From an uncultured Gammaproteobacteria bacterium (GTDB lineage: Bacteria; Patescibacteriota; Patescibacteriia; UBA11705; JABHMO01), in NCBI GenBank assembly GCA_964590105.1, contig CAZPYM010000001.1:236746-300745 (forward strand): a DNA stretch of 64,000 nucleotides, given 5' to 3'. A model generated the notes under the pieces. That model was not told the DNA's origin. It saw only the letters and a program-made list of their open reading frames with translations, and did no database searches. This document shows, piece after piece, positions 1,339 to 16,018 of the stretch (position 1 is the first letter of the stretch; the number at the start of each line of letters is the position of its first letter). Both the position numbers and the translations under genes were made by a program.

Positions 1339-1416
1339 TGGTGGATGTAGCTCAGTTGGTAGAGCATTGGCTTGTGGCGCCAATGGCCGCGGGTTCAAGT
1401 CCCGTCATCCACCCCA
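1339..1416 (+). tRNA. tRNA-His (anticodon GTG) with encoded G-1 and encoded 3' CCA
   Basis: Cloverleaf by eye: G-1 plus GTGGATG acceptor pairing with CATCCAC and C73; D-arm TAGCTCAGTTGGTAGAGC; anticodon stem TTGGC/GCCAA with loop TTGTGGC; T-arm GCGGG TTCAAGT CCCGT; CCA at 1414-1416. Confidence 0.9.
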
Positions 1417-1534: not shown

Positions 1535-2836
1535 ATGAAAAACGAAGCATTGCAAATGGCCAGAGGAGTACGCGATTTCGGGCCGGAAGAAAAAATTGCG
1601 CGCGATAAAATTGTTACTACATTAAAGCAAGTATTTGAATCTTTTGGCTACAACCCAATTGAAACTCCGGTTTTGGAACGATATGAATTATTCGCTTCCA
1701 AGTTTGGAATTGGCCAGGAGTCTGATGCTATGCGAGAAACTTTCAAATTAAAAGATCAGGGGAATCGAGATATTGTTTTGCGAACTGAATTTACAGTTCC
1801 GTTTTCAAGGTTTGTCGGCATGAATCCGCAATTCAAAAAACCATTCAAAAGATATCAGATAGGACAAGTTTTCCGCGACGGACCGATCAAGCTAGGCCGC
1901 TATCGTGAATTTTGGCAGTGTGATGTGGATGTGGTGGGGATTGGTAGTCCGCAGATTGACGCTGAAATCATTCAGTTGACTGTCGAAGCTTTTGCCAAAT
2001 TGGGAATGGAAATCGAATTTCGTTTGAATAACCGAAAAATATTAAACGAAATATTAAAATATGCCGGAATAACAGGAGAGCAGCAAATCTCAGCTATCAT
2101 TGCGATTGACAAACTTGATAAAATTGGAGTTGACGGCGTGAAAGAAGAATTAAAAGAAAAACAGATTGCCGGATCCGCAGTGGACACTATTTTAAAATTA
2201 ATTTCCATCGAAGGAAATAATCAGGGAAAAATTGTTCAGTTGCGAGATGTGTTGTCGGAAGTTGCCGGCTTGGATGAAGTCGAACAGGCCTTGGCTTTTG
2301 TTATTGACAATCAAAATGTGTTTTTCGTGCCTTCTCTGGCGCGCGGATTGGCATATTATACCGGAAATGTTTTTGAGGTTTATTTGAAGGATAGCTCGAA
2401 AATCAGTTCTTCTATTTGCGCCGGTGGCAGATATGACGATATGATCGGCGGATTTTTAGGAACTAATGAGGTTTATCCGGCAGTTGGGATCAGCTTTGGG
2501 CTCGAAACAATTTTTGATGCCATAAAATTAAATCAAAACAATGATGATGTTGTGAAATCAGTTACAGATGTATATTTGTTGGCGTTGGATGATAAATATG
2601 TTAAGAAAATCATGAACATTGCGAAACAACTGCGCCAAGCGGGAATTAAGGCGGATATGGATTATCTGGGACGCAAACTGAAAAAGAATTTAGAATATGC
2701 TGATAGTTATGGCGTCTCATGGGTGATAATGCTGGGAGAAAGTGAAGAAGTTGAGAATAAACTTATGCTGAGGAATATGAAAACCGGCGAACAGGAAAAA
2801 TTGTCAGTTGACCAAATTATTGAAAAATTGCGATAA
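1535..2836 (+). CDS. hisS: Histidyl-tRNA synthetase (class II), archaeal/eukaryal-like type
   Basis: N-terminal 'ARGVRDFGPEE'; 'FKLKDQGNRDIVLRTEFTVPFSRFVGMN'; motif 2 'RYQIGQVFRDGPIKLGRYREFWQCDVDVVG'; C-terminal anticodon-binding domain. 433 aa. Confidence 0.9.
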   Translation: MKNEALQMARGVRDFGPEEKIARDKIVTTLKQVFESFGYNPIETPVLERYELFASKFGIGQESDAMRETFKLKDQGNRDIVLRTEFTVPFSRFVGMNPQFKKPFKRYQIGQVFRDGPIKLGRYREFWQCDVDVVGIGSPQIDAEIIQLTVEAFAKLGMEIEFRLNNRKILNEILKYAGITGEQQISAIIAIDKLDKIGVDGVKEELKEKQIAGSAVDTILKLISIEGNNQGKIVQLRDVLSEVAGLDEVEQALAFVIDNQNVFFVPSLARGLAYYTGNVFEVYLKDSSKISSSICAGGRYDDMIGGFLGTNEVYPAVGISFGLETIFDAIKLNQNNDDVVKSVTDVYLLALDDKYVKKIMNIAKQLRQAGIKADMDYLGRKLKKNLEYADSYGVSWVIMLGESEEVENKLMLRNMKTGEQEKLSVDQIIEKLR

Positions 2837-2994: not shown

Positions 2995-4551
2995 ATGATT
3001 ACTTCTGAACAATTATTGGTATTGACAGGTGAAACGTTAAGCATCAATGATATTGTCGATGTTGCGCGTCATAAACGCATGAAGGTTATTATTAGTGAAG
3101 AAACAAAAAGTAAAATGCAAGCTTCCCGAGATTATGTGGCTAAAGTCGCAAATGAAAAAAGAGTTGTCTACGGCGTCACCACTGGTTTCGGAAAATTTAA
3201 AAATGTTGTTATTGCGCAGGATCAATTGTGTCAAATGCAAGAAAATTTAATTATGAGCCACGCTGTGGGCGTGGGTGAGCCGCTCAAAGAAGAAGAAGTC
3301 AGAGCGGCTGTTTTAGTCAGGGCAAATTCTTTGGTAAAGGGTTATTCTGGTGTGAGAATCGAATTGGTTGAAAAACTGCTTGAATTGGTCAATGCGGATA
3401 TTTACCCTTATGTTCCCTGCAAAGGATCAGTCGGCTCAAGCGGCGATTTGGCTCCATTGTCGCATATTATGTTGGTAATTCTTGGTATGGGTGAAGTGAT
3501 AGAAGGCGGCCAGAGAAAACCAAGCAATGAAGTATTGGCAAGGCTTGGGATTCAACCAATCAAGCTGGTGGCAAAGGAAGGCCTGGCGCTTATTAATGGT
3601 ACTTCAGTAATGACAGGTATCGCGGCCTTAGCAATTTTTGACGCAGAATTATTGACCCAAATGGCGGATATCTCCGGCGCAATGACACTTGAGGCTACTA
3701 TGGGTACGGTTGCTGCTTGTCATCATATGGTCCATTTAGCGAGACCTCATATTGGACAGCAAACTGTCGCTGAAAATATTCGTAGGCTATGCGCGGATAG
3801 CGCAATCGGTTATTCACATCGAAACTGTGATCGCGTGCAAGACGCTTATTCTCTTCGTTGTATGCCACAGGTGCATGGGGCTGTCAGGGATTCACTTCGA
3901 CATATTCGATCAGTAGTTGAAATAGAATTAAATTCCGCCACGGATAATCCTTTGATATTTCATGATTATGATTTAATTATTTCTTGTGGAAATTTTCACG
4001 GCGAACCAATTGCTTTTGTCATGGATTATCTTGGAATTGTTATTGCTGAGCTCGGAAATATTGCCGAGCGTCGGATTTGTCGGATGGTTGATCCGGCGAC
4101 CAGCGAAGGTTTGCCGGCGTTTCTTATTCCGCATGAACAGGCCGGCCTTAGCAGCGGTTACATGATTTCTCACTATACGGCGGCCGCAGTAGTTTCAGAA
4201 AATAAAATTTTGGCTCATCCTGCTAGCGTTGATTCGATTCCGACATCAGCAAACCAGGAAGATCATGTCAGTTTTGGAACAATTGCCGCCAGAAAAGCTA
4301 GACAAATTATTGAAAATGTATATGAAGTGATTGGAATTGAATTGATGAGCGCGGCGCAGGGGCTGGATTTTCATAAACCTTTGCTTCCCGGCCTTGGTTG
4401 TCAGGCGGCCTGGGAAATGATCCGTCAGTTTGTGCCATTTTCAGAAAAGGACAAAATTTTATATCAAGATATGCAGACTATCAGAAAAGAAATAATGCTT
4501 GACGGCAAAATTGTTCAGCATGTTGAGCAGAGGATCGGCAAATTGAGTTAA
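2995..4551 (+). CDS. hutH: Histidine ammonia-lyase family (MIO-dependent aromatic amino-acid ammonia-lyase/aminomutase)
   Basis: 518 aa. Signature 'GSVGSSGDLAPLSH' corresponds to the HAL 'GSVGASGDLAPLAH' MIO motif, with Ser-Ser-Gly in place of Ala-Ser-Gly. The protein shows similarity to HAL throughout. Confidence 0.8.
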   Translation: MITSEQLLVLTGETLSINDIVDVARHKRMKVIISEETKSKMQASRDYVAKVANEKRVVYGVTTGFGKFKNVVIAQDQLCQMQENLIMSHAVGVGEPLKEEEVRAAVLVRANSLVKGYSGVRIELVEKLLELVNADIYPYVPCKGSVGSSGDLAPLSHIMLVILGMGEVIEGGQRKPSNEVLARLGIQPIKLVAKEGLALINGTSVMTGIAALAIFDAELLTQMADISGAMTLEATMGTVAACHHMVHLARPHIGQQTVAENIRRLCADSAIGYSHRNCDRVQDAYSLRCMPQVHGAVRDSLRHIRSVVEIELNSATDNPLIFHDYDLIISCGNFHGEPIAFVMDYLGIVIAELGNIAERRICRMVDPATSEGLPAFLIPHEQAGLSSGYMISHYTAAAVVSENKILAHPASVDSIPTSANQEDHVSFGTIAARKARQIIENVYEVIGIELMSAAQGLDFHKPLLPGLGCQAAWEMIRQFVPFSEKDKILYQDMQTIRKEIMLDGKIVQHVEQRIGKLS

Positions 4552-4567
4552 ATAAAGATAATTAAAA

Positions 4568-4593
4568 AAGACTCCGATGAAGGAGTCTTTTTT
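4568..4593. terminator. Bidirectional intrinsic terminator AAGACTCC-loop-GGAGTCTT + TTTT
   Basis: 8-bp stem flanked by an A-run and a T-run, between the convergent HAL (+) and M20 (-) genes. Confidence 0.6.
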
Positions 4594-4648
4594 GATGATA
4601 TAAAATGCGAGAACATGAGTTAATCCAAGGTCGTATATTCGGAGGAGT

Positions 4649-5824
4649 TTAAGGTGTTCCACAGTAGTGCTGAATTATTGCGGAATATATGTCCCGCGTA
4701 ACTTCAAGAGAGTCAATGTCGACCCACTCATTAGGTTTATGGGCGTTGTCACCCAATGGCCCCAAATTAACAACGGGAATGCCGAATTTTTCTTGCAAAA
4801 ATTGTCCGTCGCCAAAACCTTTGTCCGCGCCATCCGCGTATTGCGCATTTTTACCGCTAATAGTTGCTATTGCCTTTTCGACAACTTGAATCTTTTCCGG
4901 AGCTGTATAAAGTGCCCCGAAGTCGTGTGCTATCTTGGTTTCTAATCGACAACCAAACCTTGTTTGCGCTAGTGCTACCATTTTTGCAGCCAGGATTTTT
5001 CCATTTATATCCGGCGAATTGGTGCGTATGTCAATAACACATTCAGCGTAATCGGCAATCATATTGCCCTGTTGTCCTATTTTAATTTTCCCGCCAGAAT
5101 CCGTTCCCTTATTAATACCGCCATGTAATGAAGACAGATTAAGGGTTGTTAAGCCGAGAGTTTGATGTGGCGTTGCTTCTTCAAATTCTGTTCGAAGAAA
5201 ATCGATTGTTTGATATAGCGCATCAATTGCATTATTTCCTTCTTTCGGATTTTTGGCATGACCGGTTTTTCCGAACATTTGTAAATGTATTTCAACAATG
5301 CCGCGATGAGCATTCCATATCTCGAGATCGCTCGGTTCTGCAATCATTGCTAATTCTGGTATGCCATTTTCTTCTGGATACTCAGCTAGGAACTTTTTCA
5401 TTCCGGCAAAATCGTATTCTTCGTCGCAATAAAAAAGCACAAACAATCCTTCTGCCTTTTGCAGTAAGGAAATTGCGTCCATGATAGCGGCGCACCCACC
5501 TTTCATATCATAAGCGCCTAATCCGTAAAAACGAGTGCCCTCAATTCTTCCGGCTATAGGATCGCCTTGCCAGCCTTCTTGCCGAGGGACAGTGTCTAGA
5601 TGTCCGCCAAGAAAAAGTCGGGGTTTACCGGGAGTAGTTGCGATTACATTGAATCTACCACTGTTGCCGATTGGTTGCTTTTGCACTTTAAGAAATTTAA
5701 ACTTGACAAGGTATTGGTAAACAAACTCGGCTAGCTGTCGTTCATCAGCGTTTTCTCCCACAAAACTAGGTATGGCAACTAAATTTTGCAGAAGCATAAA
5801 TGTGGAATTTTGTTTGATTGACAT
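4649..5824 (-). CDS. M20 family metallopeptidase (ArgE/DapE/N-acyl-amino-acid deacylase type)
   Basis: 'GGHLDTVP', 'GLGAYDMKGG' and 'CDEE' metal-binding motifs. 391 aa. SD AAGGAGG lies upstream of the start. Confidence 0.8.
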   Translation of the reverse strand: MSIKQNSTFMLLQNLVAIPSFVGENADERQLAEFVYQYLVKFKFLKVQKQPIGNSGRFNVIATTPGKPRLFLGGHLDTVPRQEGWQGDPIAGRIEGTRFYGLGAYDMKGGCAAIMDAISLLQKAEGLFVLFYCDEEYDFAGMKKFLAEYPEENGIPELAMIAEPSDLEIWNAHRGIVEIHLQMFGKTGHAKNPKEGNNAIDALYQTIDFLRTEFEEATPHQTLGLTTLNLSSLHGGINKGTDSGGKIKIGQQGNMIADYAECVIDIRTNSPDINGKILAAKMVALAQTRFGCRLETKIAHDFGALYTAPEKIQVVEKAIATISGKNAQYADGADKGFGDGQFLQEKFGIPVVNLGPLGDNAHKPNEWVDIDSLEVTRDIYSAIIQHYCGTP

Positions 5825-6029
5825 AGAGACCTCCTTATGTTAAAGACCTAATTTAATTTTACCTTTTTTAATTTAAATGTCAAATACAATGTTTATAGTT
5901 GTTGCTTGTTTGCTTGAGTGATTCATTAAATTTATGCACAACTTGATTTGACATTTTTAAAATTAGTCGTGTAAACTAAAGATGATTCTGTCGGGTACTT
6001 TTACAATTTAGTTTAAGGGAGGTGCGGAA

Positions 6030-7595
6030 ATGCAAAGATTGAAATATGCAAAATTGATACCAGGTGGCAATACTACAATCATTATTTTTGACCAAGTGCC
6101 ACGCAAGCATCAAGCACTGCTTGCGCGAACGATTATGGAACAGCATTCGGACTGTGAACAGGTAGGGTTTGTTGAACCTGCGAGTGGCAACTCTAAGGCA
6201 ATTTGTCGTTTGCAAATGATGGGTGGCGAGTTCTGTGGCAATGCCACACGATGCCTGACTTGGCTCGTCGCGGGCCATTATTTGCATCATGGCGATACCT
6301 GCAATGCCGAAATCAAGAATCAACTATTTGGTTCAGTTTGCAGATCTTCGGGTTCAACTACGGGCGACAATGAAGATACTAATAACCAGCAGGTTCTGGC
6401 AATGGAAGTCTCCGGTGCCGGGTATATTCTTGAAGCTAAATATTTGATTGATTCATCGGGTAAAGTGGATGATGTTATCGTCCCGATGCCGATCCGGTTC
6501 GTGCCGGCGGATTGTTTGAAACAATCTCAGTTGTTCTGGAATGAAAACGAAATGACTGTTACCATTGTTCATCTGGATGGAATTAGCCACGTAATTGTGG
6601 ATTCTAACAGATTTTCCGAAATCGGTGGTGATCCGGGGAATTTGTTGGAAACCAAACATATCTTGGCATCATTCGGCCTGGAGCAGTTAGAGGCGGCAGG
6701 TGTTATTTTCACGAGACAAGTTGGTGATTCTGTCGCCATAGTGCCGGTTGTTTATGTTCGTGAAACCGATACCTTGATTCTGGAAACCGCTTGTGGTTCA
6801 GGTACTGTAGCTTTGGCACAGAAAATTGCTTTTGAAAAAGGCGAAAGCGTTTTTGTAAAAATCATTCAGCCCAGCGGCGAAACCATCGCTGCACGTGTTG
6901 AAATGTTGAATGGAATGTTTGAATCCGCTTCTATCATGGGCAAGGTCAATATCTGTGAAGAAGGCGTAATTTCTATTCCTAATGAAGACAATCCTCTTGC
7001 GAAGGTTGAGCTTCAACAAATCAAGAGACCGGAAGAACTTGAGCCTTATGCCGACCAGGTAGGATCTTTGTATGCCCGAGTTTTTGCCGACGCACCATAC
7101 TATGAACGATTTACTCCTGAAGAGGGGTATGGCTATCTGCTGGAGATTGCAGCTGCTAACCATGGACTTTTGTTTCTGGCTTTTGATGGTGACGATGTGG
7201 TGGGTTTTGGCGGTGGTTTACCGCTGACATATGACTCGGACATTTGCAAGGTGGTAAATGGTTGCCTTAAACAGGAACGCGCTTTCTATATCGCTGAGCT
7301 CGGCGTGGATCATTGCTACCGCGGTTTGGGCTTGAGCCATGAGTTAATTAATTCCTGTCATAGGGCTATTGACCAAGAACAGTTCGATCAGGTGCTAGTG
7401 AGAACTTCAGTGGCGAATAACGCCACTCTGCACCTGTTTCGCGATCGGCGTGATTTTAGCGTTATTGCCAACGTGCGCCAGCAAGTGGTCAACCGCAAGT
7501 TCCTGCCAGGCGCCACGGAGCCGCAGGATGTTCCTGATGAGCGGCTGTTCCTTGTCCGTACAGTCAAGTCTGCCAAGCAGAACTTGGCAACTTAG
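6030..7595 (+). CDS. Fusion protein: DapF/PhzF-fold PLP-independent amino-acid racemase/epimerase (N-terminal) + GNAT N-acetyltransferase (C-terminal)
   Basis: N-terminal 'IPGGNTTIIIFDQ' resembles DapF GNDFxxVD. First catalytic-Cys motif is 'MMGGEFCGNATRC'; second is 'LETACGSGTVALA'. C-terminal (~aa 330-521) GNAT motif 'YRGLGLSHEL'. SD AAGGGAGG. GC-rich. Confidence 0.65.
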   Translation: MQRLKYAKLIPGGNTTIIIFDQVPRKHQALLARTIMEQHSDCEQVGFVEPASGNSKAICRLQMMGGEFCGNATRCLTWLVAGHYLHHGDTCNAEIKNQLFGSVCRSSGSTTGDNEDTNNQQVLAMEVSGAGYILEAKYLIDSSGKVDDVIVPMPIRFVPADCLKQSQLFWNENEMTVTIVHLDGISHVIVDSNRFSEIGGDPGNLLETKHILASFGLEQLEAAGVIFTRQVGDSVAIVPVVYVRETDTLILETACGSGTVALAQKIAFEKGESVFVKIIQPSGETIAARVEMLNGMFESASIMGKVNICEEGVISIPNEDNPLAKVELQQIKRPEELEPYADQVGSLYARVFADAPYYERFTPEEGYGYLLEIAAANHGLLFLAFDGDDVVGFGGGLPLTYDSDICKVVNGCLKQERAFYIAELGVDHCYRGLGLSHELINSCHRAIDQEQFDQVLVRTSVANNATLHLFRDRRDFSVIANVRQQVVNRKFLPGATEPQDVPDERLFLVRTVKSAKQNLAT

Positions 7596-7608
7596 AAATT
7601 TGAAAGCT

Positions 7609-7639
7609 CACTCCAGTGATAACGCTGGAGTGTTTTTTT
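7609..7639 (+). terminator. Intrinsic terminator CACTCCAG-loop-CTGGAGTG + T7
   Basis: 8-bp perfect stem followed by TTTTTTT, directly after the stop of the 6030-7595 gene. Confidence 0.7.
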
Positions 7640-7805
7640 GTTTTATGTTAAGCTTATTAAGGATGAATTCATAGAAAATCACATAAATTTTCTTAAAAAA
7701 TATGTAAAAATTGGTTATGAAATAAGCATAATGTTTGCATAAGTTGTAAGAACTTTGTTTTATATTTAAATATTTAAATATTTAAATAATTTAAGACAAG
7801 TTTAT

Positions 7806-8906
7806 ATGAAAATAAAATCAATCAAAGCAATTCCCGTTTTCTTTAAATTGTTTAAACCCTTTATTTTTTCAGGAGTGAAATTAGAGATTTTGGATTATGT
7901 TTTGGTAAGAATAGAAACAAATGATGGTGCTGTCGGGTTTGGTGAGTGTCCGGTGTACTGGGAGCCAAGAGGCGAGACTCAGATATCCACTCTTGAGGAC
8001 ATTGAAAAGGTTAAGCCATATTTATTGGGGTTGCGAGCTGATGATGTCGAGGCACGATTGGAAATTTTTCAAAAATATATTCCGCGGGCCTATGCTGCTC
8101 AATGTGGTCTAGATTTGGCGATGTACGATGCTACTGGAAAAACTTTAAATTTGCCTGTTTATAAATTTTTTGGTGAAGCTAAACCAATACCGGTGGATGT
8201 GGTCATTCCTATGATGGGAAAAAATGAGGCAGAGCCGATTATAAATAAATCCCTGTCAGAACAGGTTAAAGTATTTAAAGTAAAAGTTGGTCAAGATATT
8301 GAAAATGAGGTTGAGTTGCTAAAAATGATCAGAGGAAAAATCGGATCAGAGTTATTAATTTATGTTGATGCCAACCAGGGCTTTAAGAGTGTTGACGATA
8401 CAGTGAGTTTTATAAAAAGGATAGTTGATCTAGATATTGCCTGGATAGAACAGCCATTGCCTGCATCGGCTCCACTCGAGGAATTTATACAATTAAAAAA
8501 ACAGTTGCCAATCAAAATAATGTTGGATGAGTCGGTTTATACTTTTGAAGATGTGGAATTGTTTGCCGGGAATGAAGCTTGTGATATGTTTAATATTAAA
8601 CTGGCTAAGAGCGGCGGGATTTCCGGGGCAATTAAATTTTTTGAAGTGGCGGAAAAATTTGGCAAAGAATGCATGTTGGGGTCAATGATAGAAGGGGCTT
8701 CGGGCACTTTCGGCGGCGCACATTTTGCCAGTACTCATCAAATGATAATAACCGCATTGACGGCTTATAGGTTTATTGATGATGAATTGGCTTTTGGTCC
8801 TAAAATTAAATCTAGTTTAATGGAAGTCCCTGAAAAACCCGGATTAGGGTGCGAAAAAGAAGAACTATTTCAAAAGAGGTTCGATGATTTTTCGGATATA
8901 ATATAA
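7806..8906 (+). CDS. Enolase-superfamily racemase/epimerase (dipeptide epimerase or N-acyl/N-succinyl-amino-acid racemase-like)
   Basis: MR/MLE-family pattern: N-terminal capping domain 'VLVRIETNDGAVGFGE'; KxK 'KVKVG'; metal ligands 'DANQG', 'EQP' and 'MLDES'; second base 'IKLAKSGG'. Confidence 0.7.
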   Translation: MKIKSIKAIPVFFKLFKPFIFSGVKLEILDYVLVRIETNDGAVGFGECPVYWEPRGETQISTLEDIEKVKPYLLGLRADDVEARLEIFQKYIPRAYAAQCGLDLAMYDATGKTLNLPVYKFFGEAKPIPVDVVIPMMGKNEAEPIINKSLSEQVKVFKVKVGQDIENEVELLKMIRGKIGSELLIYVDANQGFKSVDDTVSFIKRIVDLDIAWIEQPLPASAPLEEFIQLKKQLPIKIMLDESVYTFEDVELFAGNEACDMFNIKLAKSGGISGAIKFFEVAEKFGKECMLGSMIEGASGTFGGAHFASTHQMIITALTAYRFIDDELAFGPKIKSSLMEVPEKPGLGCEKEELFQKRFDDFSDII

Positions 8907-9032
8907 TTGCAAAAACATGGCAATATGTGTTAATTATTATTTTTGAAATTCGACTTGACTTTCAAATTGTTTATTGTAAGATAAAGTCGAAAGATAAGTT
9001 ACTATTGTTGTTTACAACCAAAGGGGGACGCC

Positions 9033-10433
9033 ATGGACCAAGAAAAACTTTTACCGCGCGTTTTAAGCGGATTTCGAGATTATCCGCCGGAACAGGTACG
9101 GGCAAGGGATTTGATGATGGACAAGATCAGGCGGACATTCGAGCTGTTTGGTTTTGATCCGCTCGATACCACGACTGTGGAATTCTTGGAAATTCTTACT
9201 GGCAAAATGCCGGGCTGGGATCAGATGGGCTTGTACACTCTTGACAGTTCGATTGAAAGACGGATTGATCGGGGAGATGAAGAAACATTTTGGCTCAAGA
9301 AAACCGGCTTGCGATTTGATCTGACTGTTTCGCTTGCTCGGTATGTTGCGGCCAATCTGGATACTCTACCGCGCCCGTTCAAGCGCTATCAGCTTGGCAA
9401 GGTTTACAGGGCAGAAAGCCCTCAGGAAGGCCGCTATCGCGAGTTTTTCCAGTTTGACGCGGACACCATGTTTGCGCCGAATGTTGTAGCTGACGCAGAA
9501 ATCATCGCGCTCATGGTTGAAACCATGCTGGCGCTGGATCTGCCGCGCTCCATTGTAAAAGTAAATAATCGCAAAATCGCCGAAGGTCTTTCTTCATTGA
9601 TCGGCTTTGAGCCAAGACTTTTGAACGACGTTCTGCGCGTTCTTGACAAGCGCGACAAAGTTGGCCGCGAGGAAATGATCAGTGAGCTACGGCTTGAGCT
9701 TGGCGAAGAAGAAGATGGCAAAAGGGGCCTTGGGCTCGATGAAAAACAAGTGGAAACCCTGATGAACTTTGTCGAATTGCAAGGCGAATTGTCCGACAAA
9801 CTGGCATTTTGCCGAAATTTGTTCAAGGGCATTGAAATCGCCGAGAACGGATTTGATGAACTGGAAAGAATCGCTGAATACCTGAGAGCCATGGGTGTTG
9901 AGCCGGCAATGTGGGAAGTGGACTTTTCCATTGTCCGCGGGCTGGCGTACTACACCGGCCCGGTATTTGAAACGCAATTGCTCGACTTGCCTGAAATCGG
10001 CAGCGTATTTTCCGGTGGGCGGTTTGACAATCTGGTATCACGTTTTTCCAGTGCCAAAGTGCCTGGCACCGGCGCATCAGTGGGCGTTGACCGATTGCTT
10101 GCGGCCTTGCTGAAGCTTGAGAAAATCAAACTGACGCCGACTTGTGTGCAATGCCTGGTCATGGCGCTAACCAGTGATTTGACTGCTGAAATGGCAGTTT
10201 TGGGGCAACTGCGGCGAGCTGGCATCAATGCCATGATCTACACTGGCTCAGATATGTCTTTCAAGGCCCAGTTTGTCAGGGCAGTGAAGTTCAATGTGCC
10301 CTATATAATGATCCTTGGTGACAAGGAATTGGCTGACGGCACTGTAACGGTGCGCGATCTCGCTACTCGCGCCCAGGTAACCATTGCCCGAGATCTTCTC
10401 GTGGAATATTTCAGAGACAAAGGTATGGCTTGA
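9033..10433 (+). CDS. hisS: Second, divergent histidyl-tRNA synthetase paralogue (full length, with anticodon-binding domain), GC-rich
   Basis: 'FRDYPPEQ'; 'LRFDLTVSLARYVAAN'; motif 2 'RYQLGKVYRAESPQEGRYREFFQFDAD'; motif 3 region 'GGRFD'; C-terminal anticodon-binding domain. 466 aa. SD AAGGGGG. About 50-57% GC by inspection against ~33% locally. Confidence 0.8.
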   Translation: MDQEKLLPRVLSGFRDYPPEQVRARDLMMDKIRRTFELFGFDPLDTTTVEFLEILTGKMPGWDQMGLYTLDSSIERRIDRGDEETFWLKKTGLRFDLTVSLARYVAANLDTLPRPFKRYQLGKVYRAESPQEGRYREFFQFDADTMFAPNVVADAEIIALMVETMLALDLPRSIVKVNNRKIAEGLSSLIGFEPRLLNDVLRVLDKRDKVGREEMISELRLELGEEEDGKRGLGLDEKQVETLMNFVELQGELSDKLAFCRNLFKGIEIAENGFDELERIAEYLRAMGVEPAMWEVDFSIVRGLAYYTGPVFETQLLDLPEIGSVFSGGRFDNLVSRFSSAKVPGTGASVGVDRLLAALLKLEKIKLTPTCVQCLVMALTSDLTAEMAVLGQLRRAGINAMIYTGSDMSFKAQFVRAVKFNVPYIMILGDKELADGTVTVRDLATRAQVTIARDLLVEYFRDKGMA

Positions 10434-10480
10434 CAAGATTTTATAAATAAGGTAACGTGAAGTCGCCGATAGTGGCGCAC

Positions 10481-10554
10481 GGGTACGTAGCTCAGTTGGT
10501 TAGAGCAACGGATTGTGGCTCCGTAAGTCGCGGGTTCGATTCCCGTCGTACCCC
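10481..10554 (+). tRNA. tRNA-His (anticodon GTG), second copy; C at -1 (no encoded G-1), C73, no encoded CCA
   Basis: Acceptor GGGTACG/CGTACCC; D-arm TAGCTCAGTTGGTTAGAGC; anticodon stem ACGGA/TCCGT with loop TTGTGGC; T-arm GCGGG TTCGATT CCCGT. Base -1 is C, and CTT follows C73. Confidence 0.85.
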
Positions 10555-10561
10555 CTTCAAT

Positions 10562-10594
10562 CGAGCGGAAGAACATCTTCCGCTCGTTTTCTTT
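10562..10594 (+). terminator. Intrinsic terminator CGAGCGGAAG-loop-CTTCCGCTCG + TTTTCTTTT
   Basis: 10-bp perfect stem and T-tract immediately after tRNA-His-2. It closes the hisS2-tRNA-His2 unit. Confidence 0.75.
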
Positions 10595-10668: not shown

Positions 10669-11499
10669 ATGAAAGGCGAATATTTAATCTGTTTGGAGGT
10701 TGACAATACACTGCTCGATAGAAATTATCGCGCCACTTCGCCGACCATAAATTCGGTTATCAATCAGCTGTCGGCAGAAGGACATATTTTTATTTTGAAC
10801 TCAAACAGAGCGCTGGAAGACTTGTTGTCAATAGCGAAAATTTTTGAAATTGCCGGTCCGGTTATCGGCGAAAATGGCACCTTTATTTATTATCAGGATT
10901 TGGGAAAAACCGAAACTTTAATTGATGATGCTGTCTTGGGTCAGATTGAGCAAATTAAAAATGCAATTCCAGGTCTGATAAACAGTTATTTTCCGGAAGC
11001 AATGTTTCAAATCGGCGATACGACTGATATCAATAAGCACCTGGATATTCAAGAAATTCCGCGCGACAAAAAACTTTTGTTTTTCATGAATGAATTCCGT
11101 AGATACACTATTAGTATACACGTAAAGAAAATTGAAAACGGAGTGTTGAGCAAAGACATTACAACTGCAGGCAAACTGTGCGGTTTAATTGCTGAATACA
11201 TTGAAAAAAATAAAATGTCTTTGCGCGCAAGTTATACAGAATCATATGCCAATGTTCTGGTTTGCCCGACAACTACTGACAAGACCAGGGCGTATAATTA
11301 TTTGGTCCAAAAATTCCCGAAACATTTGCGGATATTTATTGCGGATGACGCCGATGACAAACCTGTGACTGGAGGCGATTACTTATTCGTCGTGAATAAC
11401 GCCACTCAGGAAGCAAAAAACATGGCAAATTATGTTTCACTTGAAAATATAACCAAGGGAGTGGAAGATATTTTATTAAAAATGGATAGATTAATATGA
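10669..11499 (+). CDS. HAD-superfamily (Cof-like) hydrolase, variant motif I (EVDNT)
   Basis: N-terminal 'LICLEVDNTLLD' aligns to the HAD DxDxT motif with Glu at the nucleophile position. The C-terminus has a 'DDADD'-like acidic motif. 276 aa. Confidence 0.45.
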   Translation: MKGEYLICLEVDNTLLDRNYRATSPTINSVINQLSAEGHIFILNSNRALEDLLSIAKIFEIAGPVIGENGTFIYYQDLGKTETLIDDAVLGQIEQIKNAIPGLINSYFPEAMFQIGDTTDINKHLDIQEIPRDKKLLFFMNEFRRYTISIHVKKIENGVLSKDITTAGKLCGLIAEYIEKNKMSLRASYTESYANVLVCPTTTDKTRAYNYLVQKFPKHLRIFIADDADDKPVTGGDYLFVVNNATQEAKNMANYVSLENITKGVEDILLKMDRLI

Positions 11500-12056
11500 G
11501 AAAATATCAAATCGGAGTCATGGGTTCGGCCGCTGATTTAAAATATGAAAAAGAATTGGAAAAAATCGCCGAAACAATTGGCCGGCTTATTGCCGAAAAC
11601 GGGCATACAACAGTTTACGGCGCTGAAAAAGACTATGATTCTCTGTCAACAGCGGCGGCCCGGGGCGCAAAAGCTGCCAATGGATTGACTGTTGGTGTTA
11701 CTTATGGCCGAGGAAAAGATATTTGGGACAAAAATGATAATACGGATGTGATCATTTGCAGCGGACTAGAAAGAGGCGGCGGCAGAGAATTTGTTTTAGT
11801 TAATAGTTGCGACGCGTTAATTGCGGTAAGCGGCGGATCCGGTACGTTGAGCGAGCTTGCAATTGCTTATCAGTTGGATATTCCCTGCATAGTGATTGAA
11901 AATACTGGCGGTTGGTCTGATAAATTAGCCGGACAATTTCTTGATCAGCGAAGCAGACGAAAAATAATTGGAGCAAAAAGCGCAGAAGAAGCAGTGGCAA
12001 AAATATTGGAAATTCTTCAAAACGAAATAAATAGTCCTTCGAAGTCTGCTAAGTAG
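11496..12056 (+). CDS. LOG/TIGR00725-family Rossmann-fold protein
   Basis: 'GVMGSA...' N-terminus and 'SGGSGTLSELAIAY' (PGGxGTxxE-like) motif. 186 aa. Confidence 0.5.
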   Translation: MRKYQIGVMGSAADLKYEKELEKIAETIGRLIAENGHTTVYGAEKDYDSLSTAAARGAKAANGLTVGVTYGRGKDIWDKNDNTDVIICSGLERGGGREFVLVNSCDALIAVSGGSGTLSELAIAYQLDIPCIVIENTGGWSDKLAGQFLDQRSRRKIIGAKSAEEAVAKILEILQNEINSPSKSAK

Positions 12057-12062
12057 TAAGTC

Positions 12063-12098
12063 GCGAGTGGTGAGTTAAACTAATTACTCACCACTCGC
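12063..12098 (+). terminator. 13-bp perfect hairpin GCGAGTGGTGAGT-N10-ACTCACCACTCGC (terminator-like, weak T-tract)
   Basis: Perfect inverted repeat directly after the LOG gene stop. Confidence 0.45.
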
Positions 12099-12158
12099 CA
12101 CTTATTAATTTATTGAGTTTATATATCATAGTTCATTGAAAGTAATAATGGAGGGAGC

Positions 12159-13238
12159 ATGACTGAAATAGCAGGGAAGCTCGAGGGAACTGGCAGAAAC
12201 AAGTACCTGGTTTCCGGTGATTTGCGAGTCATAGTCGGAAGATGGCTTGGGTCAAAGGGACCATTTTTTCTGCCCGACAAAAAATTGTTTGAATCTTTGC
12301 AATCAGCAGTAGTCGAAAAGTTGGAGGAAATATTCCAGCCTCGCGGGGTGGATGTGGTTTATTTGCCGTGGGATCACCTTAAAACCGGAATCCTACTGCA
12401 TATTGCCAATCACGCGGGCGATGTACCGGTTGTATCGCTGGATCAGGTCTATGTTGAAGAGGGCACCGCTGATATATATCTTGATGCAAATCGCATAGTC
12501 AAATGGTCAAAGCACACTGAAGGTGTTGATTGGCGGCAGGGATGGAGTGAAATTGGCCACGGACCTCGGCGTTCTGACTATGGAATCGCTTCGCAGCTTG
12601 AGCGTATTGTCAATCAGGGACGTATAAAGCGCATGCAGGACAAAAGAGTCGTGGTGGTGGATGACGGCACCTGGACAAGAGGGTCTCTTATTGCAGCGAA
12701 AAACCTTTTGGCAAGCGTCGGGATACGAGTTGATAAGTTTATAGTTGGAATTGAAATCAGATCAGGAACTGAAAAAGATGAAACCTTTGAAATCCCGTTT
12801 TTGTGGGTTGAAAAGTTTTGCAAGGAAGCTGTGGTTGACTGGGTTGGCGAAAGGGATTTTTTCCCAGGAGTCGGGTTTTCCGGCAGAACAGTAGGAGAAT
12901 TGATTGAAAATAACACTGAACCGGCGACGTTTCGACAGTTTTATATTTCCATGCCGATGGAAGGTAATTATGGCGCGCCGTATGTCATGCCGCTTGGTGA
13001 TCCAGTGACCTGGGCTAATGTCCCAGAAAAAAAGGCAATTGAATTTTCAATGTTCTGTCTTGACTGCGCAATTCAGCTTTATACCGCAATTGAAGCGGAA
13101 ACTCGCAGGATTACCGGACAATCCATCAAAATAAAAGTCAGTCATCTCGAACGACCGCCGTATTTTTACAGAAAGATCAAAGACATGCCGGTGACAGAAG
13201 CTCTGGCCAGCTCAAGAAAAATCTTGGAAAACATTTAA
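12159..13238 (+). CDS. Hypothetical protein with phosphoribosyltransferase-like motif, GC-rich
   Basis: 'RVVVVDDGTWTRGSL' resembles the type I PRTase PRPP-binding loop. No other recognisable family. 359 aa. Confidence 0.35.
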   Translation: MTEIAGKLEGTGRNKYLVSGDLRVIVGRWLGSKGPFFLPDKKLFESLQSAVVEKLEEIFQPRGVDVVYLPWDHLKTGILLHIANHAGDVPVVSLDQVYVEEGTADIYLDANRIVKWSKHTEGVDWRQGWSEIGHGPRRSDYGIASQLERIVNQGRIKRMQDKRVVVVDDGTWTRGSLIAAKNLLASVGIRVDKFIVGIEIRSGTEKDETFEIPFLWVEKFCKEAVVDWVGERDFFPGVGFSGRTVGELIENNTEPATFRQFYISMPMEGNYGAPYVMPLGDPVTWANVPEKKAIEFSMFCLDCAIQLYTAIEAETRRITGQSIKIKVSHLERPPYFYRKIKDMPVTEALASSRKILENI

Positions 13239-13489: not shown

Positions 13490-13658
13490 ACGAGATAGCT
13501 TTAATACATAGGACAAATATGCAAAGCAAAATTCCCAACAATCAATTATTGCGTCCGGCCGGAACCAACATGACGGATTGCTTTGTGTTTTTAACTCATA
13601 TTATAAACAGAAATCAGTCCATCATGGGCTGATTTCATTGTTTCAAAAGGAGGAAGTC

Positions 13659-14168
13659 ATGGAAAAATCACAGCTTCGCCAGGCAAATGGTCAGGATCTG
13701 ATACACATGGAAGAAATTTTTCAGCTGATTTTTGAAGAAAATCGGAAAAGTTTGATGGCTTACAAAGAGCGGGAAGAATTAAAAGCGGAGATAGTAAACG
13801 GCCAAGCGTTCCTGCTTTTTTTGGACGAAATCCTGGTAGGCTATTGCTCATACAAAATTTGGCAGTCGTGCATCGAAATCATGAGTCTGGTTTTGCGGGC
13901 AAAATATCGACAGCGCGGATATGGATTTACGCTTTGCTATTACGTGGTAAATCTGGCAAAAGAACTTTGGCCCGACAAACTGATTTTGGCCTTGCCAAAT
14001 GACAATTCAGTTGGAATTCTACAGAAGTGTGGTTTTGTAGAGTTTCCAAAAGTGGAATTACCCGATGAGTTGCGGCAGTCATGTGCAGGTTGTCTTGAGT
14101 ATAATGATTTTCCTGACTGCCATTGTCAAACCTTGCGTTTGCCTGGAAAAATTAAAACAATGAAATAA
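13659..14168 (+). CDS. GNAT family N-acetyltransferase with Cys-rich C-terminal tail
   Basis: SD AAAGGAGGA then ATG at 13659. 'QRGYGFTL' acetyl-CoA binding motif. C-terminal 'CAGCLEYNDFPDCHC'. Confidence 0.6.
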   Translation: MEKSQLRQANGQDLIHMEEIFQLIFEENRKSLMAYKEREELKAEIVNGQAFLLFLDEILVGYCSYKIWQSCIEIMSLVLRAKYRQRGYGFTLCYYVVNLAKELWPDKLILALPNDNSVGILQKCGFVEFPKVELPDELRQSCAGCLEYNDFPDCHCQTLRLPGKIKTMK

Positions 14169-14174
14169 TAATCG

Positions 14175-14198
14175 CGGGAGAGCGCGAGCGCTCTCCCG
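14175..14198 (+). terminator. 10-bp GC-rich palindrome CGGGAGAGCG-CGAG-CGCTCTCCCG (terminator-like, no T-tract)
   Basis: Perfect hairpin a few nt after the GNAT stop. Confidence 0.4.
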
Positions 14199-14220
14199 TA
14201 TATATCCTAATTAAAAATTT

Positions 14221-15342
14221 ATGAATGAAGTTCAATTATTGAAAAATTTAATTTCCATTGATTCACAGTGCTCAAAGTCGAATAAAAAAATTGTTGATTT
14301 TATTGTCTCCCTTTTTCCCGCGAAAAATTGTTTTATTACGCCACTCAAAAAAGCTGATTTAAATTTGTATAATTTGGAAATCAGATTCAAGGGAAAAAAA
14401 AGTGGCCGGCCGCTCATTTTTAGCGGGCATACTGATACTGTCCCAACTTCAAATAGATGGAAAAAGGATCCGTTTCATCCAGTTGTTTCCGACAATAAAA
14501 TTTACGGCCTAGGTTCGAGCGATATGAAGGCCGGCGTTGCCTGCATGATAAAAACCGCGCAATCTTTAATCGGCATAATTCCGGCTTGCGACGTGATCTT
14601 CCTATTTGACGCTGATGAAGAGGGCGGCTGTACCGGCGGAAAAAGTTTTATTAAAAATAAAAAGATCAAAGCGGGTTCGGCCAAAGTGGTTGTTTGCGAA
14701 CCAACGGGCGGGCGTTTGCGAGTCGGACAAAAAGGCGCAATTGAGATTTACGCGACTTTTCGCGGCAAAGCATTTCATGCCAGTCGTACCAGTTTTGCAA
14801 AAAATTTAAAACTAAATGCCATTCATAAAGCGCTTCAGGGAATGAAAGAACTTGAAAAATTGGAAAAAGAGCTTGAGAAAAAGAAAGACAAGCAGTTCAA
14901 TTTTCCAACGCAGGCGATTTGCCGCATATCCGGCGGTACCGCGGTAAATGTTATTCCGGATGAATGCAGTTTTGTAATCAACCGCCGTGTTTTACCGAGT
15001 GAAAACATGGATCAGATTGTCAAACAAATTTCTGGCTGTTTAAAAAAGATTGACCCACGGGTTGAAATAAAGATTGGTTTTTTGGGAGCGCCTAATTTGC
15101 TTCCCCTAACCAGTGAGTTATTGAAAATAACAAAAAAAATTACTGAAAAAGTTTGGAAGCGGGCTGTAGTCGCGGTTGAACCGGGCTGGACACAGGCAGG
15201 ATTATTTAAAAAATGGGGCGACTGTTTGATCTGGGGGCCAGGCGAAATAACTATGGCGCATCAGGCAGACGAATATTGCCCGATCGGCGATCTCGAAAAA
15301 ATGACTACATGCTACAAAAAACTAATTGAATTGCAGAATTAA
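14221..15342 (+). CDS. M20 family metallopeptidase (ArgE/DapE/aminoacylase type), second copy
   Basis: 'SGHTDTVP', 'GLGSSDMKAG' and 'DADEEGG' motifs. 373 aa. Confidence 0.8.
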   Translation: MNEVQLLKNLISIDSQCSKSNKKIVDFIVSLFPAKNCFITPLKKADLNLYNLEIRFKGKKSGRPLIFSGHTDTVPTSNRWKKDPFHPVVSDNKIYGLGSSDMKAGVACMIKTAQSLIGIIPACDVIFLFDADEEGGCTGGKSFIKNKKIKAGSAKVVVCEPTGGRLRVGQKGAIEIYATFRGKAFHASRTSFAKNLKLNAIHKALQGMKELEKLEKELEKKKDKQFNFPTQAICRISGGTAVNVIPDECSFVINRRVLPSENMDQIVKQISGCLKKIDPRVEIKIGFLGAPNLLPLTSELLKITKKITEKVWKRAVVAVEPGWTQAGLFKKWGDCLIWGPGEITMAHQADEYCPIGDLEKMTTCYKKLIELQN

Positions 15343-15432
15343 AAATTCTTTAAGTATGCGGTGCAATATTCAATGCATTATTAATAAGAAAAAGAGCTGT
15401 GATTAGGACAGTTCGGCTTTAAGTTTGAATAA

Positions 15433-15462
15433 AGAGCCGAGCTGTTCGCCCGGCTCTTTTTG
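15433..15462 (+). terminator. Intrinsic terminator AGAGCCG-loop-CGGCTCT + TTTTTG
   Basis: Hairpin plus T-tract between the M20 gene and the following GNAT gene. Confidence 0.5.
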
Positions 15463-15490
15463 TTTCCAAGCAAATCAACCGGAGGAAAAA

Positions 15491-16018
15491 ATGCAACAAC
15501 AAATCCAATTACTGCACAGTTCTGAAGAATTTCGGCTGGTGCATTTGGCCGACACGTTCATGGAGTTATCGGAACGCTTCAAGCAAGAGGAACATTTGCT
15601 TGGCAAAGAACCCGAAGAGCTGATGAGGCAGTTTTTAAACGGCCTGTCAGTGGTGGCTTTCAGCGGTTTTCAAATCGTCGGCCATTTAACGCTTTGGCAT
15701 TTAGAAGGCGACTGGTATGAATCCGGCTCCATCTGGGTGCATCCGCGGGCCAGACGCGAAGGTTTGGCCACAATGCTAAAGAAAGAGCTGGTCAGACGCA
15801 GTCCGCATTTCAATGTTCTTTCCACTACCACCAATAGCGTGGTCATGCGCATGAATGGCTCTCTGGGAATTCCGGAACTCGATTTTTGGGAATTGCCGCT
15901 GGAAATCCATAGCGCTACTTGTATTTGTTCCGCTGAAAAAATGCAGGCCGACTGCTTTCACGATTGCCGATTGAAAAATCAGCAATGCAGATTGTTCGTG
16001 CGACGGCGCCTGGAATAA
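15491..16018 (+). CDS. GNAT-like acetyltransferase, GC-rich
   Basis: SD GGAGG then ATG (MQQQIQLL...). 'VGHLTLWHLEGDWYESGSIWVHPRARREGLATML' resembles the GNAT core. Start trimmed from ORF 15425 because of the upstream terminator and SD. Confidence 0.5.
   Translation: MQQQIQLLHSSEEFRLVHLADTFMELSERFKQEEHLLGKEPEELMRQFLNGLSVVAFSGFQIVGHLTLWHLEGDWYESGSIWVHPRARREGLATMLKKELVRRSPHFNVLSTTTNSVVMRMNGSLGIPELDFWELPLEIHSATCICSAEKMQADCFHDCRLKNQQCRLFVRRRLE

Follow-up and report, generated by a model that had tools for sequence, protein, structure and literature searches.

A three-gene cassette in a histidine locus

The DNA analysed here (contig CAZPYM010000001.1, positions 236,746 to 300,745 of the forward strand; 64,000 nucleotides, hereafter the window) carries a gene whose 521-aa product joins a predicted histidine racemase to a GNAT acyltransferase domain in one polypeptide. 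This gene (6030-7595, plus strand) is an uninterrupted open reading frame (ORF) and stands between a divergently read M20 amidohydrolase gene and an enolase-superfamily (MR/MLE) gene. The products of the trio would, in our tentative interpretation, interconvert histidine and N-acyl-histidine. A preliminary description made from the sequence alone had drawn attention to the trio, and the ORFs that it listed (4649-5824 on the minus strand; 6030-7595, 7806-8906, and 14221-15342 on the plus strand; and two further GNAT genes) exist as written. It had missed the two histidyl-tRNA synthetase (HisRS) genes, the two tRNA-His genes, and the histidine ammonia-lyase (HAL) gene that frame the trio, and this linkage to hisS and tRNA-His proved to be the strongest contextual signal. 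The gene order is tRNA-His_A, HisRS_A, HAL, M20_A (opposite strand), fusion, MR/MLE, HisRS_B, and tRNA-His_B, as follows.

1341-1416, plus strand: tRNA-His(GUG) A, canonical (ARAGORN; Rfam tRNA model, 72 bits)
1535-2836, plus strand: HisRS_A, 433 aa (TIGR00442, 364 bits against a cutoff of 287)
2995-4551, plus strand: HAL (HutH), histidine ammonia-lyase (TIGR01225, 669 bits against a cutoff of 539)
4564-4593: bidirectional terminator-like hairpin between HAL and M20_A (read from the sequence)
4649-5824, minus strand: M20_A, ArgE/DapE-type metallo-amidohydrolase (Pfam M20 and M20_dimer)
5825-6029: divergent intergenic region between M20_A and the fusion gene, with promoter-like sites (consensus matches only)
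6030-6977, plus strand: fusion residues 1-316, predicted CntK/HisR-type cofactor-independent histidine racemase domain (families, alignment, and model)
7005-7595, plus strand: fusion residues ~326-521, GNAT acyl-CoA N-acyltransferase domain (PF00583, E 9e-8)
7609-7632, plus strand: strong terminator-like hairpin directly 3' of the fusion gene (10-bp stem, 6 GC pairs, T7 tail)
7806-8906, plus strand: predicted MLE-subgroup enolase-superfamily racemase, BC0371-like (MR_MLE_N and MR_MLE_C)
9033-10433, plus strand: HisRS_B, 466 aa (TIGR00442, 332 bits)
10481-10555, plus strand: tRNA-His(GUG) B (ARAGORN, Rfam, and sequence reading)
10562-10586, plus strand: terminator-like hairpin ending the MR/MLE-HisRS_B-tRNA-His_B unit (read from the sequence)

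The three genes at 4649-8906 are a discrete cassette inserted in the histidine locus, because a syntenic relative (L091-93) lacks exactly those three. The flanking genes of this relative share ~52-66% protein identity with those of the window, and it keeps the Na/H exchanger, tRNA-His_A, HisRS_A, HAL, HisRS_B, tRNA-His_B, the HAD gene, a phosphoribosyltransferase (PRT)-like gene, and the GNAT-M20-GNAT genes. At the site of the trio, L091 8288-9805 (corresponding to window 4552-9032) carries two unrelated small ORFs. One, on the minus strand, encodes a 227-aa GNAT-like protein with a CxxC...CxxC insert, and the other a 189-aa Cys-rich protein matching no family.

The trio appears not to form one operon, because terminator-like hairpins stand at 4564-4593, 7609-7632, and 10562-10586. 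The arrangement points to a minimum of four transcription units: the fusion gene would form one by itself, and MR/MLE, HisRS_B, and tRNA-His_B would share another. In the divergent region, a promoter-like site for M20_A at 5883-5856 and one for the fusion gene at 5948-5977 match at 11 of 12 and 10 of 12 positions, respectively, by consensus alone. Given the hairpins and the divergent promoter region, the co-expression of the trio implied by the preliminary description cannot be assumed. The gene for synthesis (the fusion) and those for recovery (M20_A; MR/MLE with HisRS_B and tRNA-His_B) occupy different transcription units, which would let synthesis and recovery be regulated apart. Searches of the window and of five related loci (L021, L025, L054, L078, and L087) for a T-box or another riboswitch gave no match, either at gathering thresholds or at E<=1, and control of this kind was dropped from consideration.

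The two HisRS/tRNA-His pairs, both of which fall within 9 kb of the window, are unlike each other. HisRS_A shares 52-68% identity with named HisRS of Kuenenbacteria, Patescibacteria, Parcubacteria, and Falkowbacteria, has a GC content of 39%, close to that of the remaining window, and is probably the native synthetase of the lineage. Its neighbour tRNA-His_A has an encoded G-1 (position 1340), C73, and an encoded CCA. HisRS_B is only 29% identical to HisRS_A, and its GC content of 50% against a window mean of 37% marks it as compositionally foreign. These two observations, the likeness of HisRS_A to Patescibacteria enzymes and the foreign composition of HisRS_B, reversed an assignment of HisRS_B/tRNA-His_B as the native pair. 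All class II and histidine-binding motifs of HisRS_B are complete, the only change being GGRFD for GGRYD, and it groups with the module-linked HisRS of loci L004, L005, L006, L008, L009, and L076. tRNA-His_B has normal D- and T-loops, C at -1 (position 10480), C73, no encoded CCA, and no genomic G-1. Similarly, the tRNA-His genes beside HisRS of the same clade in L004, L005, L006, and L009 have no encoded G-1; several of them have A73, and that of L005 also has G1:U72. Both pairs are kept in L091, together with a third tRNA-His at L091 13569-13644. A clade of Alphaproteobacteria has tRNA-His without G-1 and a co-evolved HisRS. tRNA-His_B and the four module tRNAs resemble that clade in the missing G-1, whereas the window holds a G-1-less and a canonical G-1 pair together, a few kb apart in a small genome.

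The racemase-acyltransferase fusion protein

The N-terminal part of the fusion protein matched the NCBIfam models for two histidine racemases, CntK (E 4e-23) and HisR of Fusobacterium (E 1e-21), and no other racemase family. Its precomputed Pfam family is CntK_N (PF26317), and from sequence comparison we regard it as a distant member of the wider CntK_N family, not an equivalog. A sequence search of the PDB gave matches limited to CntK (6l4l, 6jis, and 6jiw) and HisR (9cr1 and 9cr6). An AlphaFold2 (AF2) model built from 19 homologues was confident for both domains (pLDDT 91.3, pTM 0.84) and showed the DapF-like two-domain fold, as did the Foldseek comparison. In the latter, HisR 9cr6/9cr1 and CntK 6jis/6jiw led with a target TM of 0.77-0.80 and E about 1e-21, followed by folds of the proline-racemase type (about 1e-14) and by DapF and PhzF (about 1e-12). 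A 13-residue insertion at fusion residues 104-116, missing from the homologues, was modelled with pLDDT <50.

The translation contains both cysteine motifs that the preliminary description had pointed out, EFCGNATRC (Cys69) and ETACGSGT (Cys255). The two cysteines are invariant in the 19 homologues and align with Cys67 and Cys209 of HisR. The pair corresponds to the catalytic cysteines that stand at the N-termini of the central helices in the CntK/HisR type. Glu43, Glu67, and Glu252 are invariant as well and align with HisR Glu49, Glu65, and Glu206, or with CntK Glu46 and Glu208. Such Glu residues of HisR and CntK have been proposed as ligands of the imidazole (PMC11602996). A PhzF-like isomerase, whose active site is of the Glu45/His74/Asp208 type and has no cysteine pair, was rejected, since both racemase cysteines are present and PhzF structures rank ~nine orders of magnitude below HisR/CntK; catalytic residues and structure ranking likewise ruled out DapF and proline racemase. 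The earlier assignment to the PLP-independent two-cysteine racemases, distinct from PhzF, is upheld, and histidine, which it had named as a conceivable substrate, was strongly borne out by families, PDB matches, alignment, and fold ranking. Based on the conserved residues and the model, we predict with high confidence that the N-terminal domain is a histidine racemase.

CntK of the Staphylococcus aureus staphylopine pathway and HisR of F. nucleatum share with this domain the fold, the two catalytic cysteines, and the imidazole Glu. They differ from it in that identity is about 20-26%, the window domain is fused to a GNAT, and the gene context is unlike both. Neither CntL nor CntM was found among the ORFs of 1-20.6 kb, among ten larger ORFs scanned in the remaining window, or in the related loci. 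A staphylopine-like metallophore cluster (CntKLM) was rejected, as no CntL, CntM, or transporter is present among the window ORFs scanned.

In the C-terminal part, Acetyltransf_1 of Pfam spans residues 357-471 of the 521-aa fusion, confirming the fused GNAT, and the AF2 model of this domain has a pLDDT of 95. The CoA-binding loop reads R431-G-L-G434-L-S436 (R-R-x-G-I-G in relatives), and the R-x-x-G-x-G/S loop is conserved among the GNAT homologues together with charged residues E39, R138, D183, and R185 (A2 alignment numbering). Its neighbours in sequence and structure are generic; among them are N-alpha-acetyltransferases and enzymes that N-acetylate amino acids, for instance those for phosphinothricin, ArsN, and tabtoxin resistance, and an attempt to read the substrate from the nearest structure was abandoned, as it returned generic GNATs at TM about 0.55-0.65. 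A profile search of 1.8 billion representatives delineated a distinct GNAT subfamily of 660 clusters at E<=1e-10. Among the best 150 members, stand-alone proteins of ~190 aa form the majority, alongside ~30 C-terminal and a few N-terminal fusions. Both stand-alone members whose context was checked (2/2) adjoin CntK_N and M15 genes.

The GNAT domains are acidic, with an isoelectric point (pI) of about 4.7-6.4 in 24 of the 25 family members computed, and therefore appear better suited to a small cationic substrate than to tRNA. This property bears on a tRNA-linked chemistry, in which the GNAT would acetylate (D-)His-tRNA-His, or HisRS_B/tRNA-His_B would carry His or D-His for non-ribosomal transfer. 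The tight and repeated adjacency of tRNA-His/hisS and racemase/GNAT genes invites this idea; the G-1-less tRNA-His_B and its counterparts in L004, L005, L006, and L009 could be orthogonal to canonical HisRS, and GNAT toxins that acetylate aminoacyl-tRNA exist. However, tRNA-binding GNATs are not acidic in this way, the acyl-CoA loop is kept, the enzyme joined to the domain yields a free amino acid, and tRNA-His_B has ordinary loops and HisRS_B ordinary motifs. Action of the GNAT on aminoacyl-tRNA is disfavoured on account of the acidity and the CoA loop, and we consider tRNA-linked chemistry very improbable.

The fusion is not an accident of assembly, because six contigs carry the identical 521-aa protein, and the three of these loci that were displayed stem from as many different ENA samples.

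Partner enzymes and related loci

The MR/MLE enzyme retains the MLE catalytic set, with the KxK lysines K158/K160, the second lysine K265, and the metal ligands D188, E215, and D241, which is invariant in the window and three orthologues. Its best PDB match was 2p88/2p8b/2p8c (E 2e-45), which we take to be the N-succinyl-Arg/Lys racemase BC0371 of B. cereus, ahead of B. subtilis YkfB (6e-40) and other dipeptide epimerases. NSAR/OSBS structures (1wuf, 1wue, and 1r0m) were far weaker (1e-20 to 1e-15), the OSBS models scored under their cutoffs, and the DgcA model matched at E 5e-31 with 108 bits, well under its cutoff of 400. In YkfB, Asp321 and Asp323 bind the ammonium group of the dipeptide and Arg24 binds the Glu side chain. 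The corresponding positions in the window enzyme are A317-L-T319 and Val24, and T316-A317-L318 is invariant in the orthologues. A simple dipeptide epimerase was rejected, since the DxD motif and Arg24 are both missing. The preliminary description had named a simple dipeptide epimerase with a role in peptidoglycan recycling as an outcome that would speak against it, and the missing residues argue against that outcome. Its reference to the NSAR pathway needs correction as to subfamily: the enzyme fell outside NSAR/OSBS in the subfamily comparison, and its specificity residues and PDB ranking place it in the dipeptide-epimerase/BC0371 branch. BC0371 groups with the Ala-Glu epimerases, although three residues of their signature are missing, and racemises N-succinyl-L-Arg (PMC2948282). 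The window enzyme resembles BC0371 in clustering with dipeptide epimerases without signature residues and in a suggested basic side chain of the substrate. The two differ in that identity is modest, the eighth-strand motif is A-L-T in the window and E-L-T in BC0371, and the predicted substrate in the window is N-acyl-His. Because the MLE set for 1,1-proton transfer is kept and the dipeptide-epimerase residues are missing, the substrate would be an N-acyl amino acid, and by analogy the enzyme may be an N-acyl-histidine racemase.

M20_A and the MR/MLE member were both confirmed as such by Pfam and NCBIfam, M20_A being of the ArgE/DapE type. Its best PDB match was E. coli ArgE (7rsf, E 5e-31), it scored under every NCBIfam equivalog cutoff, and its orthologue in L004 is 71% identical. 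By analogy with ArgE, M20_A is a putative N-acyl-L-histidine deacylase. No signal peptides were seen, and all proteins appear to be cytoplasmic. Secretion of the hydrolases, a way out of the futile cycle considered below, was dropped for this reason.

The occurrence of the module was surveyed with fusion homologues and a species-representative genome scan, using tblastn, ORF clustering, Pfam, and ARAGORN. Relatives of the module recur in many uncultured bacteria of different phyla. The complete trio of fusion, M20, and MR/MLE was found on three independent contigs (L004, L005, and L006), with protein identities of 40-67%, or 40-77% at the widest, and adjoining tRNA-His and hisS in each. HAL adjoins the module in L004, L009, L018, and L076, and HAL fragments do so in L005 and L006. 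The racemase and the GNAT occur as CntK_N-GNAT (window; P0002-P0013), as GNAT-CntK_N (L008, L094, P0017, and P0022), and as separate neighbours (L009, L087, and L096). In L009 the split genes are accompanied by HAL, M20, hisS, and tRNA-His. A hydrolase (M15 and/or M20) adjoins every GNAT-bearing locus examined, about 22 of 22.

Furthermore, the linkage to histidine genes extends across these loci, with hisS and tRNA-His as the usual neighbours and HAL or hisG, hisZ, hisIE, or hisD as occasional ones. tRNA-His genes directly neighbour the racemase or hisS of the module in at least nine loci: L004, L006, L009, L015, L076, L078, L087, and, with two such genes each, the window and L005. CntK_N is fused to HisRS at L010 156-2552 (P0027), and M15 to HisG (ATP-PRT) at L087 11804-13591. 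In a Clostridia metagenome-assembled genome (MAG), L025 8236-14120 reads hisZ-hisG-[CntK_N-GNAT]-hisIE-hisS-M15, with a further hisS upstream, and in L094 a GNAT-CntK_N/M15 pair is surrounded by HisD and by three genes resembling HisRS, one of them coding for 702 aa. Racemase and hisS (with or without tRNA-His) occur together with neither GNAT nor hydrolase in L015, L054, and L078.

Two further observations concern genes near the racemase. In cultured Clostridium spp., including C. tetani ATCC 19406, a stand-alone CntK_N gene often lies within a few kb of HAL (L019, L036, L043, L052, L056, L059, and L069), which suggests D-His catabolism and offers culturable systems for the racemase family. 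In several Patescibacteria-type loci, a small gene of the TrpR helix-turn-helix (HTH) family lies within ~1.5 kb upstream of the fusion, often divergently, and is a candidate regulator of the module. These TrpR-family HTH genes are located as follows.

L007, 7238-7531
L012, 4456-4725
L013, 8285-8584
L014, 3617-3940
L017, 9409-9726
L094, 7556-7852

In the commonest form of the module, a VanX-type M15 gene follows the fusion, often followed in turn by hisS. This form is found in Patescibacteria (Roizman-, Levy-, Gottesman-, and Peribacteria) and Clostridia, and in one MAG each of Micavibrio, of an alphaproteobacterium, and with the label Saprospiraceae. The M15 of most module versions is a VanX homologue with intact zinc and catalytic motifs, including the catalytic Glu; M15 is missing from the window cassette. 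In keeping the Zn ligands and the catalytic Glu, it resembles the VanX/DdpX D-Ala-D-Ala dipeptidases, but it is coupled to a GNAT and hisS, not to a D-Ala ligase. A gene of the AstE/AspA family (succinylglutamate desuccinylase/aspartoacylase) adjoins M15-type modules at L018 13624-14466, L029 2780-3655, and L076 12115-12939.

Damage control for a salvage racemase is one rival explanation. Here the racemase would make L-His from D-His, the GNAT would cap surplus D-His, M15 would cleave dipeptides of the D-Ala-D-His type mismade by Ddl, and M20, AstE/AspA, and MR/MLE, in loci that have them, would recycle N-acyl-His. Each enzyme would then perform chemistry typical of its family (M15 as a VanX homologue, M20 and AspA as N-acyl-amino-acid deacylases), co-expression of GNAT and M15 would need no futile cycle, and loci with M15 plus M20 or AspA would be accounted for. 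In VanC-type operons, too, an M15 enzyme is found together with an amino-acid racemase. On the other hand, loci with racemase and hisS but without GNAT or M15 would share the hazard, the M15-HisG fusion better fits a histidine-supplying enzyme, the use of D-His by Ddl is without supporting evidence, and the window cassette has no M15. We judge this explanation decidedly improbable.

The Geobacillus kaustophilus route from D- to L-amino acids combines a GNAT, an enolase-superfamily racemase, and an M20 enzyme (bioRxiv 2022.03.03.481873). The window cassette is built from the same three superfamilies and would follow the same logic of N-acylation, N-acyl racemisation by an MLE-subgroup enolase, and L-specific deacylation. 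It differs in that its acyltransferase is fused to a direct histidine racemase, its enolase lies outside NSAR/OSBS, the cassette is embedded among hisS, tRNA-His, and HAL, and most relatives of the module have a VanX-type M15 in place of enolase and M20. The DgcN/DgcA D-Glu route similarly combines an acyltransferase with an enolase-superfamily N-acetyl-amino-acid racemase, but the side-chain class differs and that route is without a fused direct racemase. By analogy, the cassette would work in the manner of these N-acyl stereo-inversion routes. Since its enolase falls outside the NSAR/OSBS subfamily, it does not belong to the pathway of that name.

A D-to-L route of this type was what the preliminary description had proposed. 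For histidine it would be an irreversible salvage of the NSAR/DgcN type, in which exogenous D-His is N-acylated, racemised, and deacylated, with the fused racemase adding a fast direct route. The composition does match the G. kaustophilus pathway, and DgcN/DgcA supplies a second precedent. In addition, the adjacent HisRS/tRNA-His and the CntK_N-HisRS fusion suggest a supply of L-His, minimal modules of racemase, hisS, and tRNA-His exist (L015, L054, and L078), and the host, if Patescibacterial, is probably a histidine auxotroph. However, a reversible racemase fused to a committing acyltransferase would keep remaking D-His from L-His and burn acyl-CoA, short-circuiting an irreversible route, and gene fusions normally link consecutive steps, not parallel ones. 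In the majority form, where the D-specific VanX-type M15 replaces enolase and M20, the scheme reduces to D-His -> N-acyl-D-His -> D-His; furthermore, no D-amino-acid transporter lies nearby among the annotated window ORFs. Because plain D-to-L salvage leaves both the racemase fusion and the M15 majority form unexplained, it is insufficient, and we regard it as unlikely.

Beyond the cassette, the following genes had been counted by the preliminary description among the module.

13659-14168 and 15491-16018: extra GNAT genes (starts 13578 and 15425 if TTG is used)
14221-15342, plus strand: second M20 gene, M20_B (ORF list)

These genes (GNAT2, M20_B, and GNAT3), together with the HAD, LOG, and PRT-like genes, were rejected as module parts, since they are not kept with the trio in L004-L006 and are present without it in L091; the 13578-16018 cluster is shared with L091 independently of the trio. 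Both of its GNATs have Cys/His-rich tails, and M20_B exceeds the DapE-ArgE subfamily cutoff and is the nearer relative of the M20 in modules L005 and L006. Between tRNA-His_B and this cluster, 10669-13238 encodes, besides a HAD-IIB phosphatase and a LOG/SLOG-cluster4 protein, a conserved protein of 359 aa that has a faint phosphoribosyltransferase signal only and no significant relative in a PDB search; any link of these genes to histidine or nucleotide chemistry is speculative. Farther on, 19634-62098 is a long same-strand cluster of polysaccharide/O-antigen-type biosynthesis, in which GC falls to 30-35% and which includes NDP-sugar epimerases/dehydratases, UDP-glucose dehydrogenase, a flippase, UDP-GlcNAc 2-epimerase, and Polysacc_synt_2. 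The genes for tRNA-Thr(UGU) (17014-17089, plus strand) and tRNA-Trp(CCA) (26778-26851, minus strand) also lie in the window.

The independence of the downstream GNAT/M20 genes from the trio, and the spread of the trio over several separate transcription units, would agree with there being no functional unit at all, the genes being chance neighbours or the fusion an artefact of assembly or annotation. We give this almost no credence: the fusion protein recurs identically on six contigs, its ORF is uninterrupted with a confident two-domain model, the trio is conserved in three other lineages, and the context is conserved family-wide.

A predicted loop between histidine and N-acyl-histidine

We propose that the products of the cassette form a closed loop, specific for histidine, that connects the free amino acid with N-alpha-acyl-histidine and serves histidine homeostasis, as follows: L-His ⇌ D-His -> N-acyl-D-His ⇌ N-acyl-L-His -> L-His. 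In the first step, the N-terminal domain of the fusion would racemise L- and D-His by the cofactor-free two-cysteine mechanism of CntK/HisR, as fold and residues indicate. The GNAT domain would then acylate the alpha-amine of the fresh D-His with acyl-CoA to give N-acyl-D-His. Next, the enolase enzyme, using Mg and two lysines for 1,1-proton transfer, would interconvert the D and L forms of N-acyl-His. Finally, the ArgE-like M20 would hydrolyse N-acyl-L-His to L-His for the adjacent HisRS/tRNA-His and HAL. Elsewhere, the VanX-type M15 would act as an amidase in place of the third and fourth steps and free D-His, which the racemase would return to L-His.

N-acyl-D-His is placed at the centre of this scheme for three reasons. 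The racemase and the GNAT are found fused in both orders and split, which would be the signature of consecutive steps; M15, the usual partner, belongs to a family that cleaves amides formed on the amine of a D-amino acid with a free carboxylate; and an N-acyl racemase with an L-type M20 would give the same recovery only from the D form. Judging from the family chemistry of the sequences, N-acyl-His chemistry for GNAT, enolase, and M20 together is probable, and the closed loop for homeostasis is held tentatively, with less assurance than that chemistry. Regarding the acyl donor, BC0371, the Geobacillus route, AstE, and DapE are family precedents for succinyl-CoA as an alternative, and DgcA, ArgE, and AspA would be precedents for acetyl. 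Patescibacteria are usually without a tricarboxylic acid (TCA) cycle, and acetyl-CoA is the more likely donor if the host is a Patescibacterium. Such a placement is suggested by the likeness of HisRS_A to named Patescibacteria enzymes.

Several points weigh against the proposed loop. The substrates of GNAT, enolase, and M20 are assigned from context and family chemistry only. The NCBIfam scores of the racemase domain are well under the equivalog cutoffs (82 against 300 bits for CntK, and 77 against 400 bits for HisR). The window GNAT has Phe470 where all other aligned homologues have the motif-B Tyr, the general acid in many GNATs, so that it may be a weak catalyst. The hydrolase solutions are not clean alternatives, L009 having M20 without MR/MLE and L096 having both M15 and M20 in a tight operon, CntK_N-GNAT-M15-M20-HisRS. 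The fusion and M15 genes of most other lineages usually overlap by 4 bp or lie a few bases apart, so that translation of GNAT and M15 is coupled and the two proteins would be made together, and not in alternating phases of storing and mobilising. With all proteins apparently cytoplasmic, the loop is literally futile and costs one acyl-CoA per turn. Finally, no mention of N-acetyl- or N-succinyl-D-histidine was found in the literature searched.

The physiological meaning of the loop is held with much less certainty than the chain of enzymes. The interpretation that we prefer, though still as a doubtful one, is a histidine reservoir by which the module would control the pool of free histidine: histidine would be reversibly parked in a form that HisRS, HAL, and HisG/HisZ cannot see, beside the genes that consume or make it. 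Loci for storage compounds and compatible solutes often hold the genes for synthesis and breakdown together.

Alternatively, N-acyl-D-His could be an end product, for example one that buffers pH or serves as a compatible solute, chelates metals as a small molecule, or acts as an antimetabolite, with the hydrolases for recycling or self-protection and HisRS_B/tRNA-His_B as a product-insensitive resistance copy. The fusion would unite the consecutive steps L-His -> D-His -> N-acyl-D-His, a logic of isomerase plus GNAT like that of AblA/AblB in N-epsilon-acetyl-beta-lysine synthesis. In unrelated lineages (window, L025, and L094) the module comes with a second or third copy of HisRS, HisRS_B is foreign in composition, and the extra hisZ, hisG, and hisIE beside the module resemble the precursor supply of a biosynthetic cluster. 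Yet the genes next to the module, in the window as in most loci, include no exporter, importer, or CntL/CntM-type tailoring gene, both HisRS pairs persist in L091 where the trio is missing, and the active site of HisRS_B is ordinary except for GGRFD. We consider an end product quite unlikely.

In its widest form, the proposed loop would belong to a widespread, so far unrecognised histidine-chirality system that makes and unmakes N-acyl-D-His to gate the supply of histidine to translation, joined in this lineage by a dedicated, horizontally acquired HisRS_B/tRNA-His_B that is without G-1, a near-universal identity element, and is orthogonal to HisRS_A/tRNA-His_A. This extension is improbable, in our estimate. 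If true, a single, probably minimal, Patescibacteria-like genome would hold two parallel histidine-charging systems, one of them tied to D-His metabolism. G-1 and G-1-less tRNA-His, each with its own HisRS, also make the locus a natural test case for how the identity rules of tRNA-His change.

In the literature searched, we found no racemase-GNAT fusion, dedicated GNAT subfamily, obligatory hydrolase partner, or linkage to hisS, tRNA-His, or his genes, and a search for histidine racemase together with HisRS gave nothing relevant; the module appears to be undescribed there. Fusobacterium HisR has as yet no known role, and why bacteria should make D-histidine other than for staphylopine is still to be explained (PMC11602996). 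A route from L-His to N-acyl-D-His on one polypeptide could serve biocatalysis. The module ties the field of enolase N-acyl-amino-acid racemases (BC0371, NSAR, and DgcA) to a specific physiological substrate, at the strength given above, and it occurs commonly in Patescibacteria, a group with a little-understood metabolism. With only two cofactor-independent histidine racemases characterised, it gives D-histidine a concrete and testable context.

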